DNA from: an uncultured Pseudomonadota bacterium
Lineage (GTDB): Bacteria > Pseudomonadota > Alphaproteobacteria > RF32 > CAG-239
DNA length: 64,000 bases
Direction: 5' to 3'
Assembly (NCBI GenBank): GCA_902495305.1
Contig: CABUWG010000002.1
Span: forward strand, 11,783-75,782
Shown here piece after piece: positions 40,387-46,185 of the stretch (positions within the stretch are counted from its first letter, which is position 1; each line of letters opens with the position of its first letter). A model generated the notes under the pieces. It was not told the origin of the DNA and searched no databases. It saw only the letters and a program-made list of their open reading frames with translations. Both the position numbers and the translations under genes were made by a program.

Positions 40387-41718
40387 ATGAATTTGGACAT
40401 TTTGCTGGCGATTGCCGGACTGCTGTTGATGCTTTGCGTTTTTGCCAACAAAATTTCCGACAAATACGGCATTCCCGCTCTTTTGATTTTTCTGGGGCTC
40501 GGCATGCTTGCAGGCTCGGACGGCGTCGGCCGTATCGAATTCCACAATGCCCGCCTGACCAACGTCATCGGCACCATCGCCTTGGCCTTCATTCTGTTTT
40601 CCGGCGGCTTGGACACCAACTGGCAAAACGTCAAAGGCATTGCCAAACGCGGCAGTGTCTTGTCCACTGTCGGCGTTTTGCTGACCGCCATCTTCCTCTT
40701 TTTGTTCAGCCACGACATCTTGGGACTGTCGGTTGAAATCTCCATGCTGCTCAGCGTCATCGTGTCATCAACCGACGCGCCGGCCGTTTTCTCCATTCTG
40801 CGGTCACATAATTTAAACGTCCAGCCCCGATTAAAAGCCCTGCTGGAATTTGAATCCGGCAGTAACGATCCGATGGCCGTGTTCCTGTCAATGAGCGCCA
40901 TCGCTTTCATCTCACAAGCCGATTTTGACCTCCTCAGTCTGCTCCGGAGTTTCTTCCTGCAAATGTCTCTCGGCATTATTTTGGGACTGAGTTTCGGCTT
41001 CGGCGCCTGCCGCCTTCTGTCACAGTTCAGCCTGCCGTATAAAGGCCTGTACCCTGTTTACGGCGTCGGCGTGGTGCTGCTGAGCTACAGCTTAACCCAG
41101 CTTGCCGGCGGCAACGGCTTCTTGGCCGTCTATCTGTCAGGCATTGTCATGGGCAATACCAGCTACCAATACCGCCGCCACATCATTCGCTTTCAGGATT
41201 CTCTGGCTTGGATTATGCAGATCAGCATGTTCCTGATTCTGGGCCTGTTAGTCAACCCCAATGAGCTCTTTCAGGTTATGCCCGTCAGCTTTGCCTGCAC
41301 TATTTTCTTAATTTTTATCGCCCGTCCGCTGGCCGTATGGCTCTGCCTGCTGCGCAGTGACTTTAGCTTAAAAGAACAGATATTTATCGGCTGGGCCGGC
41401 TTTAAAGGCGCCGTCCCGATTATTCTGGCAACCTATCCGCTCATCCGCGGCTTTCCTAATTCTCAATTTCTGTTCAACCTGATTTTCTTTATGGTCATCA
41501 TCTCCGTGTTGTTTCAGGGCAAAACCCTCGCTCCGCTGGCTCGTCTGCTCCGTTTAAGTACAGAAAAGCCTTTAAATCCGGATAATCCTGATTATGTTAG
41601 TGAAAATGAAGACGACGACGACGATGACGATGATGAAAAAGAAGAAAGCTTCTCCCGTTTATCGTTCCGCAAACTGTTCAGAAAACTGCTGCATAAAGAA
41701 CCCAAAGAAGAAGAATGA
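40387..41718 (+). CDS. CPA1-family monovalent cation/H+ antiporter (NhaP-type) with an acidic poly-Asp C-terminal tail
   Basis: 12-13 TM helices with a CPA1 fold. The tail is SENEDDDDDDDDEKEE. Confidence 0.75.
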   Translation: MNLDILLAIAGLLLMLCVFANKISDKYGIPALLIFLGLGMLAGSDGVGRIEFHNARLTNVIGTIALAFILFSGGLDTNWQNVKGIAKRGSVLSTVGVLLTAIFLFLFSHDILGLSVEISMLLSVIVSSTDAPAVFSILRSHNLNVQPRLKALLEFESGSNDPMAVFLSMSAIAFISQADFDLLSLLRSFFLQMSLGIILGLSFGFGACRLLSQFSLPYKGLYPVYGVGVVLLSYSLTQLAGGNGFLAVYLSGIVMGNTSYQYRRHIIRFQDSLAWIMQISMFLILGLLVNPNELFQVMPVSFACTIFLIFIARPLAVWLCLLRSDFSLKEQIFIGWAGFKGAVPIILATYPLIRGFPNSQFLFNLIFFMVIISVLFQGKTLAPLARLLRLSTEKPLNPDNPDYVSENEDDDDDDDDEKEESFSRLSFRKLFRKLLHKEPKEEE

Positions 41719-42449
41719 AAAAATACGCTGCTTCAAATTTTCTCAAAATGCTGATTCAAAATTTCAATTTCAGCATTTTCATCAGCCTGTTTTTGTTGTC
41801 AGTCTTTCCGTTACATGAATATTTTCACGGCAATCCGGCCCAGACATTCTCCGCGCTGCTCATTCCTCTCGCCAATGCCGTTATAACCGGACTGGCCATT
41901 CTGACGCTCAACAGCTTTCTGGCCCGCCGGAACTATATTTTTTCTTACCATCCTCAGGATAAGCTCAAACTGTTTTGCATCGCATTCGGAGCCGGACTTC
42001 TGGGATACTATATCACGTCATCCTCCCTTGCCACTTACCTGATCAGCCTGATGATAACTTATACGGCAGTAATGAACGTCCGCCGCTTTGCCGGAAAACT
42101 TTCCGCCCTCTTACGGCAGGATACATTGGCAACACGCAAAGACATCGGCGAATTTGCCAACTTTTTCATCAATTTGATTATTTCTTTTTCGGTCATAAAC
42201 CTGAGTCTTAACACGCTTCACAACGACCTTAGCTGGAAACCTGCTTTTAATTTCGGAAAAGGCTTTGCCGCAGTTATAGACTCTTTTTACTTCAGCGTCA
42301 TCACCATAACAACCGTCGGCTATGGCAATATCGTTCCTCAGACACTGCTGTCCAGATTTGTTGTTGCTCTGGAATGCCTGACCGGTTATATCATTCTGGG
42401 AATAATGATCGGCATCATCACCCGCGGCATCACCGCCCAAAGAAGATAG
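41715..42449 (+). CDS. potassium channel (TVGYG selectivity filter), translationally coupled to the antiporter
   Basis: ATGA overlap with the upstream gene. Pore helix plus TTVGYGNIVP. Confidence 0.65.
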   Translation: MKKYAASNFLKMLIQNFNFSIFISLFLLSVFPLHEYFHGNPAQTFSALLIPLANAVITGLAILTLNSFLARRNYIFSYHPQDKLKLFCIAFGAGLLGYYITSSSLATYLISLMITYTAVMNVRRFAGKLSALLRQDTLATRKDIGEFANFFINLIISFSVINLSLNTLHNDLSWKPAFNFGKGFAAVIDSFYFSVITITTVGYGNIVPQTLLSRFVVALECLTGYIILGIMIGIITRGITAQRR

Positions 42450-42710
42450 CGCCTTTCCGCTCAACAAAACCCGCTTCTTCACAACTCCGAACGCACCTTT
42501 CTCTCGCCTCAGCAGCCCTCATTCCTTCCGGCTTCCCAACAGTCTGTTCTACACTTCAACCACATGCGTGCCTTTTCCAACTCCAGACTTCCCCCTCATC
42601 TGTCTCTTACCGCAGAACCAGCCGATTTTTTCTCAAATCTAACCGCTTCGGCAGACATGATATTCAATAAATCTCTCTGACCGGCACCCAGCACCCCAGT
42701 CTCCAATAAC

Positions 42711-42959
42711 TTAATACAAAATCTTAATATTGCCGGCCGCAATCCTGCCCTTATCATCATATAAGTCAAAGCTAACCTTTTGACCTTCTTTCAAATATTT
42801 AAATCCAATCTTTTCCAATTGCGAGATATGCAGAAAAAATTCCTGCTTGCTTTCATCATGAACAATAAAACCATAACCTTTTGAAACATCAAACCATTTA
42901 ATTTTTCCAATCATAATATCCCCCCTAACATCGCTAAAAGAAGTAAAATCATCTGACAA
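42711..42959 (-). CDS. cspA: cold-shock protein CspA family (probable true start at the internal Met near 42914)
   Basis: MIGKIKWFDVSKGYGFIV RNP1 motif and a long AT-rich 5' leader. Confidence 0.75.
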   Translation of the reverse strand: MSDDFTSFSDVRGDIMIGKIKWFDVSKGYGFIVHDESKQEFFLHISQLEKIGFKYLKEGQKVSFDLYDDKGRIAAGNIKILY

Positions 42960-43206
42960 TCAAAATTAGATAAAATTATAACTTGTCAACTTTAAAAAAT
43001 AAACTTACATTTATTTACAGTAACAAAAGACAACGAATAATTACAATTTTCGTTCATTATTGACACAAAAACCTAAGAAACCCTTAACATATATAGGATT
43101 TAACACAATTTTATAAAACTTTTGTTTATAACCCTACAAATACGCGATTTTAATATAAAAATATACCTTTGGATTGGAAAAAATAATTTTTCAGAAATTT
43201 AAAAAA

Positions 43207-43238
43207 CAAAAAAAGGCGATTCGCATCGCCTTTTTTTA
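43207..43238 (-). terminator. terminator after rplQ (end of the ribosomal superoperon)
   Basis: AGGCGA-ttcgca-TCGCCT perfect hairpin flanked by an A-run and T7. Confidence 0.7.
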
Positions 43239-43252
43239 CTCAAAAGAACAAA

Positions 43253-43693
43253 CTAGTTAGCTTCTTTGGCAGCGGCTTCAGCAGCAGCTTTTTCTTCGGC
43301 AACACGAGCCAGATCTTTTGCACCTTTGGCGTTAACATCTCTGTCAACGAGTTCAATAACAGCCATCGGAGCACAGTCACCATAACGGAAACCGGCTTTC
43401 AAAACTCTGGTATAACCGCCGTTGCGTTCTTTATAACGCTCGGCCAAAGTGGAGAAAAGCTTGGAAACAACTTCGTTGTCACGAAGAAAAGCCAAAGCCT
43501 GTCTGCGGTTGCTCAAATCACCTTTTTTACCCAGAGTGATCATGTTATCAACAAAAGTTCTCAATTCTTTAGCTCTCGGGAGCGTAACGCTAATCTGCTC
43601 ATGTGTTAAAACAGCATTGGTCAGGTTAGCAAACAAAGCTCTTCTCTGGCTTCTTGTCATATTAAGTTTTCTGTGTTTCATTCCATGTCTCAT
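43253..43693 (-). CDS. rplQ: 50S ribosomal protein L17
   Basis: [24 protein letters not shown]... Confidence 0.9.
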
Positions 43694-43806
43694 GACATAT
43701 TTCCTTTCTTTTTCTCTGTGTCCTGCAGGGCAGAACGGATAAAACTCCGGCCTTTACCACGGATTCTCAACAAGCTCATGCATAAAGGCACTTCAATCGA
43801 GGCTGT

Positions 43807-43843
43807 TTGTAACACACAAAAAACTGAATTGCAAGCAAAAAAA
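43807..43843 (-). promoter_or_regulatory. promoter-like motif copy 1 (TTTTTTTGCTTGCAATT...TGTGTTACAAA) upstream of rplQ
   Basis: About 30/38 identical to the motif upstream of rpsJ at 59945..59982. Confidence 0.45.
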
Positions 43844-43886
43844 GACAGCAACCAAAGCTAAAAGCCCCAATCACTGTCTTTTTTCT
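43836..43886 (-). terminator. possible terminator of orphan gene 43886..44518
   Basis: AAGACAG ... CTGTCTT stem with a large 25-nt loop, then T7 on the minus strand. Confidence 0.3.
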
Positions 43887-44518
43887 CACAATTTTCCCAA
43901 CAAAACCGAAAAATCATCATGCTCAATATAATAATGACGATTTGTCCTTTCCAAATCATAACATTCATAAGGATCTCCGGCTTGTCCCTTTTTCAACGCT
44001 AACATCCAAAAGCAAACTTTCTCCAAACTGGGCACCTCTGCTTCCCTCATTTGCGCAATCAAAGCAGGCCGATATTTCTCCACGAGACGGGAATCTGCTC
44101 TGCTTAAAAGGCTGACTCCCAGTCGCTCAACCGTTTCTAACAGATAGTGAGGGAAAACCGCAATCGGCGTCACGCCGGCAATAATCAAATCCGCCGACAA
44201 GGCAAATCCGCGTAATCTTCCGCTTTTTTCCACCACATACCACGGAGAAGACTTTTCAGCGTAACAGTTCCGAACTTTGCTCTTGACCTGTTCAGCAGCC
44301 GCATTATCATCAACCCAAATAATCAAAGGCTTATTCTTAGTCAAAAACCATTCCGGCAGCACGGGGTACTCAAAACAAAAAAGCCGTTCGCACAAAAGCT
44401 CATGAATCGCTCTGTCATGCTCCCAATACGGAACATCCGCTCTTGGCACAAAGTGACAATAAACCGCGTAGATCAACGTCCAATCTTCTTGCTGAACAAA
44501 CCGTCGCCAAACGTCCAC
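43886..44518 (-). CDS. orphan hypothetical protein inserted between rpoA and rplQ (GTG start)
   Basis: 210-aa ORF with normal amino-acid complexity and no domain recognised. Confidence 0.45.
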   Translation of the reverse strand: MDVWRRFVQQEDWTLIYAVYCHFVPRADVPYWEHDRAIHELLCERLFCFEYPVLPEWFLTKNKPLIIWVDDNAAAEQVKSKVRNCYAEKSSPWYVVEKSGRLRGFALSADLIIAGVTPIAVFPHYLLETVERLGVSLLSRADSRLVEKYRPALIAQMREAEVPSLEKVCFWMLALKKGQAGDPYECYDLERTNRHYYIEHDDFSVLLGKL

Positions 44519-45018
44519 ATTATCATCCCGACTGGGAACAGGGAAACTTCGCCGCTCAGGACTAACCTTTATGGGTTAGAAACTTTAACTTTCTTTTCGA
44601 ACCCCAATTTACAAAATAATTCTTTTAACATAAGTGTAGTATTTAAAATTAATAATTATCTATAACTCTGAAAAAATAACATATCAAACTCAAAAAGCAA
44701 GAAAATTATTCCGGCAAAAACCACGCCCGCACCTTATCTTCATCACGACCTCAGATCCTGCCCTTCTTTCGCCCCTACTTCAGCCTCACCTCACCCTTTC
44801 ATCCCTGCTTTGGCCTCTTCGCACACCCTCTCCCAACCCCACTTTTCCTCCCACACCATACACCAATTATTTCCACACACCACGCTTACATACAATCCCC
44901 CCTTTCACTCTTTTCTGCCTCTCACAACCGCCACAACATTGCGACACGACCAATCAACATCTGTCCGCCCTTTTTTTTCCTCCTTCCTCCATCAAAGAAA
45001 ACGACAACAAGCTTTAAA

Positions 45019-45056
45019 ATACAAAAAAGGAAGCCGTATCAAGCTTCCTTTTTCTT
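45019..45056 (-). terminator. terminator immediately after rpoA
   Basis: AAGGAAGC-cgtatca-GCTTCCTT hairpin followed on the minus strand by TTTTTTGT. Confidence 0.6.
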
Positions 45057-45070
45057 TATATTTTCAACAC

Positions 45071-46071
45071 TTAAAAGTGTTCGTCAACACGACGGATCAG
45101 TTCCTCAATATTTTCAGGCGGCCAACCCGGCGTATCCATACCAAGATGAATACCCATCTTTGCCAGAACTTCTTTGATTTCATTCAAAGATTTTCTGCCA
45201 AAGTTCGGCGTTCTGAGCATTTCGGCTTCAGTCTTCTGAACCAAATCACCAATATAGACAATGTTGTCATTTTTGAGGCAGTTGGCAGAACGAACAGACA
45301 ATTCAAGTTCTTCAACCTTTTTAAGCAGGTTTTTGTTGAACGGCAGCTCTTCTTTTTCAACTTCAACTTCGCTTTCCGGTTCATCAAAGTTAATAAACGG
45401 TTTCAGCTGATCTTGCAAGATTCTTGCTGCCAAAGCAACCGCATCTTCCGGAGAAACAACACTGTTGGTTTCAACAACCAGAGTCAGTTTGTCATAGTCG
45501 GTAACCTGACCGACGCGGGTATTCTCAACTTTGTAAGAAACCTTCTTAACCGGAGAATAAATCGCATCTACGGCAATCACGCCGATCGGAGCATCTGCGG
45601 CTTTGTTCTGGAACGCCGGCACATAGCCTTTACCGGTATTAACCGTCAATTCCATATTGATTTTAGCACCGGCATCCAGATTGCAGATAACGTGGTCAGG
45701 ATTCTTAATCTCAACGTCATGACCTGTATCAATCATCTGTGCGGTAACCTCACAAGGACCTTCAGCCTTCAAAGTCATCGTCTTCGGGCCTTCGCCGTGA
45801 ACAGCCACAGCCAAACCTTTAATGTTCAGGACGATATCTGTAACATCTTCTCTGACCCCCGGAATAACGGAAAACTCATGAAGCACACCGTTAATCTTAA
45901 TAGCGGTTACGGCACCGCCTTGCAGAGAAGACAGCAAAACGCGTCTCAGCGCGTTACCCAAAGTTAATCCGAAACCCCGCTCCAGAGGTTCAACCACGAT
46001 TTTAGCCTTGCTGCCGCCCTCACTGGGAACAACTTCTAAGTTCGTAGGTTTAATAAGTTCTTGCCAATTCT
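45071..46071 (-). CDS. rpoA: DNA-directed RNA polymerase alpha subunit (probable GTG start giving [12 protein letters not shown])
   Basis: Canonical RpoA N-terminus and alpha-CTD. AGAGGA RBS before GTG 46071 (the track ORF extends to 46099 via TTG). Confidence 0.9.
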
Positions 46072-46185
46072 TTTGAATCACTGGTATGTCCTCTTTCAAT
46101 TAGTGCATATGCATATTTTACAAAACTCAAGAGAAAGCGAGGCACTAAAGCAGCCTCGATCTCTTTACATAACAAAGATAAAAGA

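Follow-up and report, generated by a model that had tools for sequence, protein, structure and literature searches.

In the classical alpha operon (rpsM-rpsK-rpsD-rpoA-rplQ), rplQ, the gene for ribosomal protein L17, is co-transcribed with rpoA, the gene for the RNA polymerase alpha subunit, and S4 represses at the rpsM leader. The rpoA-rplQ pair is among the most conserved gene junctions of bacteria. Here, we analysed a stretch of 64,000 nucleotides (nt) of contig CABUWG010000002.1 (hereafter the window), from an uncultured gut alphaproteobacterium, in which rplQ does not follow rpoA immediately: the two genes lie 1377 nt apart, with a further gene, called X here, between them. As in the E. 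coli and B. subtilis alpha operon, the core genes rpsM, rpsK, rpoA, ... rplQ keep the same order on one strand. Unlike in these species, rpoA carries its own predicted terminator, rpsD lies outside the cluster, and rplQ has a private predicted promoter, leader and terminator; Alpha_RBS (RF00140) was not detected in an Rfam scan of the window. The locus also resembles fragmented ribosomal-protein superoperons (str-S10-spc-alpha), in which universally conserved junctions are broken by terminators, promoters and accessory genes, but differs from them in that the gut clade around the window breaks rpoA-rplQ clade-wide, has relocated rplQ repeatedly and carries a dedicated new leader. The only published L17 leader, L17-Actino-Proteobacteria, is a 7-base-pair (bp) hairpin enclosing the invariant loop ACCUGAUACG (GGUACCUGAUACGGCC) (Eckert & Weinberg 2020, PMC7247131). 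We consider it probable that the ancestral rpsM-rpsK-rpoA-rplQ operon has been dismantled in the gut clade, that rplQ has become autonomous under a leader likely to mediate feedback by L17, and that gene X is no fresh insertion.

The rpoA-rplQ junction in the window and its relatives

All genes relevant to the rpoA-rplQ region are on the minus strand. The features of this region that had been picked out in a sequence-only reading of the window were all recovered, at the same positions or a few bases off, and its proposal that rpoA and rplQ belong to separate units, each side with its own terminator or promoter, agrees with the terminators and the promoter predicted here. Terminators were sought by a consensus scan combined with RNA folding, with z-scores relative to shuffled sequences. 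Three sites, after rpoA, after the open reading frame (ORF) of 210 codons that lies upstream of rplQ (ORF210, the body of gene X) and after rplQ, show a GC-containing hairpin and a direct U-run past the stop codon, and two of these strong hairpins with T-runs lie between rpoA and rplQ. The rpoA terminator also forms a hairpin with a T-run on the plus strand (bidirectional hairpin 45024-45053). The T-run of the gene X terminator runs into the T-tract of the rplQ promoter, a layout also seen in a relative (L090). The predicted rplQ promoter consists of sigma-70-like hexamers, a TG extension and a T-tract on the upstream side; a generic promoter scan passed over this site, since TACAAA breaks that scan's rule of a T at position 6. 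Transcription would start at about 43799. In the proposed arrangement, rpoA transcription would stop at the intrinsic terminator and rplQ would form its own unit, with a strong sigma-70-type promoter, a 5' untranslated region (UTR) of ~105 nt holding two covarying helices, and a terminator.

For comparison, loci were fetched via the L17 protein, one genome per GTDB species, and rpoA and rplQ were mapped on each. The nearest records (L007-L030) are metagenome-assembled genomes (MAGs) of uncultured gut, rumen and faecal Alphaproteobacteria; L17 of one of them (L007, MAG MGBC133411) is identical to that of the window. Throughout this gut clade, rpoA is the final gene of an rpsM-rpsK-rpoA unit, and in the relatives it was called as a 336-residue product with an internal GTG start. 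The rpoA-rplQ gap measures 19-199 nt in 56 other Alphaproteobacteria. Among the 24 gut-clade loci, it is 185-258 nt in five species and 570-2197 nt in six; rpoA is not found within 4 kb of rplQ in 10, and three loci are cut by contig ends. The upstream neighbours of relocated rplQ genes include an AddA-like helicase with thioredoxin (trxA), tyrS, htpG, a UDP-glucose pyrophosphorylase-like (galU-like) gene and others.

In 12 of 15 clade loci, a canonical terminator comes straight after the stop codon of rpoA; four of these loci have no insert (L011, L015, L016 and L019). The minimal form, seen in L015, packs rpoA, a terminator, a TTTTTTTTGCTTGCAATT promoter, the leader and rplQ into a gap of 185 nt. 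Upstream of rplQ, a CTTGC(A/T)-N-TGnTAnAA (-35/-10) arrangement is aligned in most clade loci, whatever the upstream gene. Since terminator, promoter and leader are thus present in insert-free relatives and at relocated rplQ genes, the earlier proposal that rplQ was recruited to a ribosomal-protein promoter after an insertion is not supported. We conclude, from these sequence comparisons, that the split between rpoA and rplQ is clade-wide, independent of the insert and not the product of a recent insertion event. The clade shows how this linkage can be surrendered: an rpoA terminator and a private rplQ promoter and leader, after which rplQ is mobile.

The rplQ leader

When the 235 nt upstream of rplQ were aligned from 22 genomes, ~100 nt proved to be conserved whatever the context. 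This leader comprises two helices, P1 and P2 (Table 1). Inside P1 lie a conserved internal loop (5' UGCAUGA / 3' CCGUGG) and an optional hairpin, P1a, which is missing in eight "short" variants, where the loop reads UUYAUGAAGGURG. A conserved, single-stranded linker, UUUAUCC, separates P1 from P2. Past P2 come CACAGAGAAAAA, the Shine-Dalgarno (SD) sequence GAAAGGA (43708-43702) and the AUG; the distance from the end of P2 to the SD is 11 nt.

The structure is backed by covariation. RNAalifold applied to the raw MAFFT alignment recovered only P2, with 4 of 7 pairs compensatory, and missed P1 because short and long variants were misaligned; a partner search found P1 pairing in 24 of 24 sequences. 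In 15 long variants aligned with MAFFT alone, the share of paired cells is 92.9%, whereas sliding the partner by 1-3 columns leaves 40-47%; 14 of 18 pairs carry changes on both sides, and none of 500 shuffles reached these observed values. The result was likewise obtained on 27 sequences in a model-fitted alignment. MAFFT run on all 24 trimmed leaders shifted the short variants, and that alignment was not used.

A covariance model detects the leader upstream of rplQ in all gut-clade loci whose 5' flank is long enough (E = 1e-22 to 1e-6), L018, cut at a contig end, being outside this count. It also matches L031 (E = 9e-5); the remaining 55 Alphaproteobacteria have no match below E = 0.5. Among loci fetched via X, the model matches those with rplQ (L087-L091 and L097) and none of those without (L092-L096). 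Altogether, the leader is present in at least 24 species and accompanies rplQ in over 10 distinct upstream settings. Rfam returned nothing in the leader or in the C-depleted tract described below, either for the whole window at gathering threshold or for 43150-45150 at E <= 10. In particular, Rfam 15 gave no match at 43694-43800 at gathering threshold or at E <= 10, the inclusion of the L17 model in that release not having been separately checked, and on 17 alphaproteobacterial loci the only Rfam match was Alpha_RBS, in L039. As a side observation, a small hairpin (CCC..GGG) immediately 5' of the leader is common to L008 (3757-4000) and L012.

As in other ribosomal-protein leaders, the element lies in a 5' UTR directly upstream of a ribosomal-protein gene, near the SD, and has a structure backed by covariation. 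By analogy with these leaders, free L17 would bind the rplQ leader and repress its own translation, and such feedback would replace the lost coupling to the alpha operon. Because rplQ is the sole gene of its unit and P2 ends so close to the SD, autogenous translational repression by L17 is the most likely function, and the leader most likely an L17 autoregulatory operator. With ~70 nt of structure and clean covariation, it is small enough for direct in vitro study.

The window leader and L17-Actino-Proteobacteria are both predicted cis-acting RNAs directly upstream of a stand-alone rplQ, for both of which L17 is the presumed ligand, rplQ being the sole regulated gene. In each, a conserved element close to the start codon comes after a 5' hairpin that varies, and both contain an AU(A/C)CGG-like string. 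By contrast, the GGUACCUGAUACGGCC-loop 3' hairpin of the published leader is missing here: the 3' hairpin of the window leader has a variable loop of 4-5 nt, and the conserved letters lie in the internal loop UGCAUGA / CCGUGG and the linker UUUAUCC. The published core (pattern GGTACCTNNNACGG) occurs neither in the window leader nor in any of the 97 loci fetched by then. The rplQ leader is a candidate for a second, structurally different class of L17 leader.

Mimicry of ribosomal RNA by the two leaders is possible, as a lead only. In E. coli 23S ribosomal RNA (rRNA) (L099), AUGA(N0-2)CCGUG occurs once, at 2883-2892 (0.035 expected), directly beside the sole CCGGUAC, at 2874-2880 (0.15 expected), the region reading CCGGUACUAAUGAACCGUG. 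CCGGUAC is the invariant start of the loop in the published L17 leader (PMC7247131). Positions 2874-2892 of 23S rRNA may thus be an L17 recognition element that both leaders share, and a comparison of the two could locate that element. A literature search on contacts of bL17 with H101 or the 23S 3' end returned no usable statement.

Gene X and the C-depleted tract

In the sequence-only reading, ORF210 was an orphan gene with no recognisable family. It is in fact the body of a gene that belongs to a conserved family and carries a frameshift. An initial search returned two relatives only: P0001, of 248 residues, 96% identical to ORF210 and with 38 extra N-terminal residues, and P0002, a 175-residue fragment. 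With tblastn, a full-length homologue (29% identity) was found directly upstream of rplQ in L010, and a search with this homologue gave 15 intact proteins of ~242 residues. Finally, a profile search of 1.84 billion representatives yielded 50 clusters, 38 of them at E <= 1e-10, with lengths mostly of ~200-270 residues and some shorter fragments. These searches identify X as a clade-restricted family of ~220-250 residues from gut and rumen Alphaproteobacteria.

In every locus with enough flank, X is co-oriented and lies downstream of rpoA, directly upstream of rplQ, or both (Table 1); L092, a 2.5-kb contig with one downstream gene visible, is outside this count. In distant members of the clade, this position is taken by homologues with 19-40% identity, so the gene is old rather than new. 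X would be ancestral, with many losses; repeated gain is also possible. The same arrangement with a conserved gene in relatives is what the earlier reading had named as evidence that would speak against it; arrangement and conserved gene were both found, and the gene is an unannotated one, not the annotated gene that had been specified. Two of the loci carry an accessory island between rpoA and X, with ankyrin-repeat (Ank), SPM-domain, NUDIX and HAD hydrolase genes and small ORFs (L089, 1157-4886; L087, 182-4306), and a Tad4-family gene downstream of rplQ.

No usable match to X was obtained in Pfam, NCBIfam, PADLOC or PHROG, with none in Pfam at E <= 10. An AlphaFold (AF2) model of intact X built on a 45-sequence alignment reached a predicted local distance difference test (pLDDT) score of 91.4 and a predicted template modelling (pTM) score of 0.86; it predicts a helical and an alpha/beta domain, with disorder at the N-terminus and a sheet at the C-terminus. 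Foldseek searches of PDB and BFVD with a first, poor model (pLDDT 69) and with the good model (pLDDT 91) gave no match with E < 0.09; for the latter, the best matches had E of at least 0.09 and TM scores of at most 0.27, with MgtE among the top ones. When the X profile was compared with PDB sequences, the MgtE cytosolic domain (1.1e-3), the CBS domain of ClC-5 (0.018) and, at E of about 1, additional CBS proteins came out, the signal lying at profile positions ~88-138 (motif VVD..hKLvGFAL..LIIAGV). X thus resembles CBS-domain and MgtE sensor domains in that its best PDB-sequence matches fall in CBS regions, but it differs from CBS-domain proteins in having neither a Pfam match nor a significant Foldseek neighbour, and its membership is not established. 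Assignments of X as a C-type-lectin-like or an MgtE-like protein were both rejected. The steady place of X beside rpoA offers a concrete starting point for its function. Tentatively, and with less confidence than in the dismantling of the operon, one may imagine that the leader is a new structural class of L17 operator, architecturally unrelated to the published one, that like the latter copies the 23S 3' end (2874-CCGGUACUAAUGAACCGUG-2892) and evolved as rplQ left the alpha operon, and that X is an unseen fold functionally tied to RNA polymerase alpha or to L17.

Three-frame translation and alignment with the intact allele (L097/P0001) revealed the frameshift. The family start codon lies at 44631, and the intact gene encodes 248 residues; the loss of 1 nt near 44577 (TCT-AACC, against TCTGAGCC in the intact gene) shifts the first 20 codons, upstream of ORF210, out of frame and generates a TAA. 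The body of X is 97.5% identical to that of L097, with 4, 2 and 10 differences at codon positions 1, 2 and 3, suggesting purifying selection until recently. Variation within the gene is greatest in its N-terminal region (85% nt identity). In the sister species represented by L001-L007, X is spread over three frames (~80% amino-acid and 89.5% nt identity) and is estimated to evolve close to neutrality. In L008, whose rpoA is the closest (96.9% nt identity), both X and the tract are absent, and only the last ~90 nt of the 245 nt between rpoA and rplQ, corresponding to the leader, are homologous to the window. Taken together, the frameshift here, the three-frame copy in L001-L007 and the loss in L008 argue that X is decaying or lost in this species group or, at best, would yield an N-terminally truncated protein from the GTG.

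The gap between rpoA and ORF210 (45070..44519, 552 nt) contains no listed ORF and had been described as a 0.55-kb pyrimidine-rich non-coding tract. The bias holds for ~275 nt of it, an extreme spacer at 44999..44725; the rest is not simply non-coding, as the remaining ~200 nt are AT-rich and comprise a promoter-like site, which would serve gene X, and its displaced N-terminal codons. The spacer has the strongest GC skew of the window and includes a relaxed G-quadruplex-like (G4-like) run at 44852..44826; no ORF, tandem repeats, stable RNA fold (z = +0.77) or Rfam match was found in it. It is present in the window, L097 and the L001-L007 lineage, and absent from the other clade members. Its identity is 84% to L097, with 25 gap columns, and 58% to L007, versus 96-99% and 87-95%, respectively, for the flanks; the adjoining AT-rich promoter region (44724..44633) is kept at 87-96% in L007 and L097, and the C-poor tract is not. 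This lineage-specific, unstructured and fast-evolving tract is probably an unconstrained spacer under compositional bias. A role as a CsrA sponge was considered and dropped, as the count of GGA motifs equals the expectation from base composition.

Table 1 Features of the rpoA-rplQ region, the rpsJ promoter and arrangements of X in relatives (positions in the window unless a locus is named).
Feature	Position	Strand	Description or basis
rpoA (RNA polymerase alpha)	46099..45071	-	ORF and Pfam RNA_pol_A_bac, RNA_pol_L and alpha C-terminal domain
rpoA intrinsic terminator (predicted)	45017..45054 (hairpin and T-run 45054..45023)	-	13-bp stem, -18.8 kcal/mol, z = -4.8
G/A-rich, C-depleted spacer (275 nt; plus strand pyrimidine-rich)	44725..44999	-	G 46%, A 27%, T 20%, C 7%
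Gene X promoter-like site	44659..44696	-	TTGATA-N17-TATAGA after T-rich sequence; weak third copy (63%) of the rplQ/rpsJ motif
Displaced 5' end of gene X	44631..44569	-	ATG and 19 codons, then TAA; out of frame
ORF210, body of gene X (family residues ~40-248)	44518..43886	-	GTG start, 210 residues; first start codon past the frameshift
Gene X intrinsic terminator (predicted)	43882..43840	-	-27.1 kcal/mol, z = -6.0
rplQ promoter (predicted)	43843..43806	-	T-tract and -35 TTGCAA (43834..43829), 17-nt spacer, extended -10 TGTTACAAA (43814..43806)
rplQ 5' leader (~96 nt, ~70 nt structured)	43694..43789	-	covariation and covariance-model matches
Leader P1, 7 bp	43789-43783 paired with 43756-43750	-	
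Leader P2, 7 bp	43736-43730 paired with 43726-43720	-	variable 4-5-nt loop
rplQ (ribosomal protein L17), monocistronic	43693..43253	-	ORF and Pfam Ribosomal_L17
rplQ intrinsic terminator (predicted)	43241..43204	-	-17.8 kcal/mol, z = -4.2
rpsJ (S10 operon) promoter (predicted)	59982..59945	-	T-tract/-35 and extended -10 in common with the rplQ promoter
rpoA-X-rplQ	L090		
rpoA, two ORFs, X, rplQ	L010		
rpoA-Ank-SPM-NUDIX-HAD-ORF-X-rplQ	L089		
rpoA-X-gyrA	L093, L094		
rpoA, four tandem X paralogues (217-220 residues), gyrA	L095 2014-4904; L096 2-2757		rplQ absent from the locus

Competing explanations and neighbouring features

The sequence-only reading had a recent insertion of an orphan gene and a pyrimidine-rich tract split an intact rpoA-rplQ pair, with a duplicated rpsJ promoter rescuing rplQ. 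The 1377-nt gap is indeed unusual, and just 245 nt separate the two genes in L008, a close relative. Moreover, the rplQ promoter (43843..43806) and a site ~165 nt upstream of rpsJ (59782..59471) are identical at 31 of 38 positions, a likeness unique in the window, where TTGCAA-N17-TACAAA occurs at these two sites against 0.06 expected. However, the identity is confined to functional elements, with 17 of 17 positions in the T-tract and -35 and 9 of 9 in the extended -10, but 5 of 12 in the spacer; duplication of the rpsJ promoter is therefore not demonstrated, and the likeness fits convergence on a strong-promoter consensus, so that of the supposed promoter paralogy the resemblance is borne out. 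Terminator, promoter and leader occur without any insert in L011, L015, L016 and L019 and at relocated rplQ genes, homologues of X at 19-40% identity hold the same position in distant clade members, and the signs of a mobile element are missing: there are no flanking repeats and no recombinase ORF, and X keeps a constant genomic position. A recent orphan insertion is, for the most part, the wrong picture of the locus, and we regard this scenario as very improbable. A milder alternative is that X is intact or functional in vivo, either because the frameshift is an assembly error or because a 210-residue product from the GTG at 44518 works, the N-terminal ~38 residues being dispensable. The near identity of the body to the intact allele (97.5%), the third-position excess (4/2/10), the retention of the promoter-like site and the terminator, and an N-terminal region that is both the most variable (85% nt identity) and, over its 38 residues, predicted to be disordered (pLDDT <50-65) would all accord with it. 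Yet no clear SD precedes this GTG, residues M1, K3, E19, P20 and S24 hardly vary among the closer members of the family, and the three-frame copy in the sister species and the absence of X from another relative mark its loss as a trend of the lineage. We hold a functional X to be possible, with the odds against it.

For the leader, the alternative to an L17 operator is an RNase processing or stability element, a target of another ribosomal protein or of a small RNA, or a small-molecule sensor. A processing site would fit the persistence of the leader in L008 and L012, possibly within an rpoA-rplQ co-transcript, and L17 is a presumed ligand. Against this stand the strict association of the leader with rplQ in more than 10 upstream contexts, its absence where rplQ is absent, the 11 nt between P2 and the SD and, as a lead only, the resemblance of two independent L17-associated leaders to adjacent letters of the 23S 3' end; we consider a function other than L17 binding rather unlikely. 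About as doubtful, and if anything slightly more so, is a function of the C-depleted tract as a Rho-utilisation (rut) site on the plus strand that would stop antisense transcripts heading toward rpoA. C-rich, G-poor and unstructured RNA is the textbook form of a rut site, and the plus strand of the tract, with C 46%, G 7% and no structure, has kept its composition despite 42% sequence divergence. A plus-strand promoter-like site lies inside X (44283-44310), and a second, weaker tract of matching polarity (42611..42452) starts 3 nt past the stop of a converging plus-strand gene, the expected place for a Rho terminator. However, the main tract has no plus-strand gene upstream, none of the other clade members with the same rpoA terminator carries it, and the bidirectional hairpin at 45024-45053 already serves the plus strand.

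Several observations weigh against a dismantled operon with an autonomous, L17-regulated rplQ and an old, decaying X. Three loci (L008, L012 and L017) have no recognisable rpoA terminator and, together with L022 and L027, no consensus rplQ promoter, although the leader is kept; this suggests that the leader also works inside a longer transcript and that the split is not universal. In L008, L012 and L017, rplQ may still be co-transcribed with rpoA. Read-through at the rpoA terminator and the actual transcription start site are matters of prediction from sequence, and the case for L17 as the ligand comes solely from rplQ being the only gene of its unit. Taken singly, the leader sequence folds no more stably than shuffled versions (z = -0.58), its support being comparative and not thermodynamic. 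The frameshift in X could be a consensus error of the MAG, X stands beside rplQ in only 2 of 24 species representatives, and the composition of the tract, kept through ~42% divergence, could mean selection on composition.

The weaker tract (42452-42611; G-rich and C-poor on the minus strand, C-rich on the plus strand) starts 3 nt past the stop of a plus-strand K+-channel-like gene (41715..42449) that converges on csp (42959..42711) and rplQ, and it is also present in L001-L007. By its composition and placement, it may be a Rho-dependent terminator region. The cold-shock-domain gene csp is preceded by ~240 nt of very AT-rich sequence (42960-43200) with several promoter-like sites, which may represent a long csp-type 5' UTR.

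The spc operon is likewise split, at 49143-50308, between rplO (50761..50309) and secY (49142..47790). The rplO terminator (50282..50253), whose flanks match those of the rpoA terminator at 75% over 40 nt, is followed by a membrane ORF of 64 residues (50120..49926) with its own terminator (49902..49873), and a NUDIX-like gene (49332..49826) lies on the opposite strand between this ORF and secY. Further upstream, rpsJ has its own predicted promoter and a 5' UTR of ~165 nt (59783-59982). In place of tuf/fusA, it has upstream a co-oriented cluster (60160-63705) comprising a nadE-like gene (60933..60160) and ORFs of 492 (62416..60938), 220 (63075..62413) and 191 (63705..63130) residues, which, from their translations alone, we take to be NAD-salvage-like genes.

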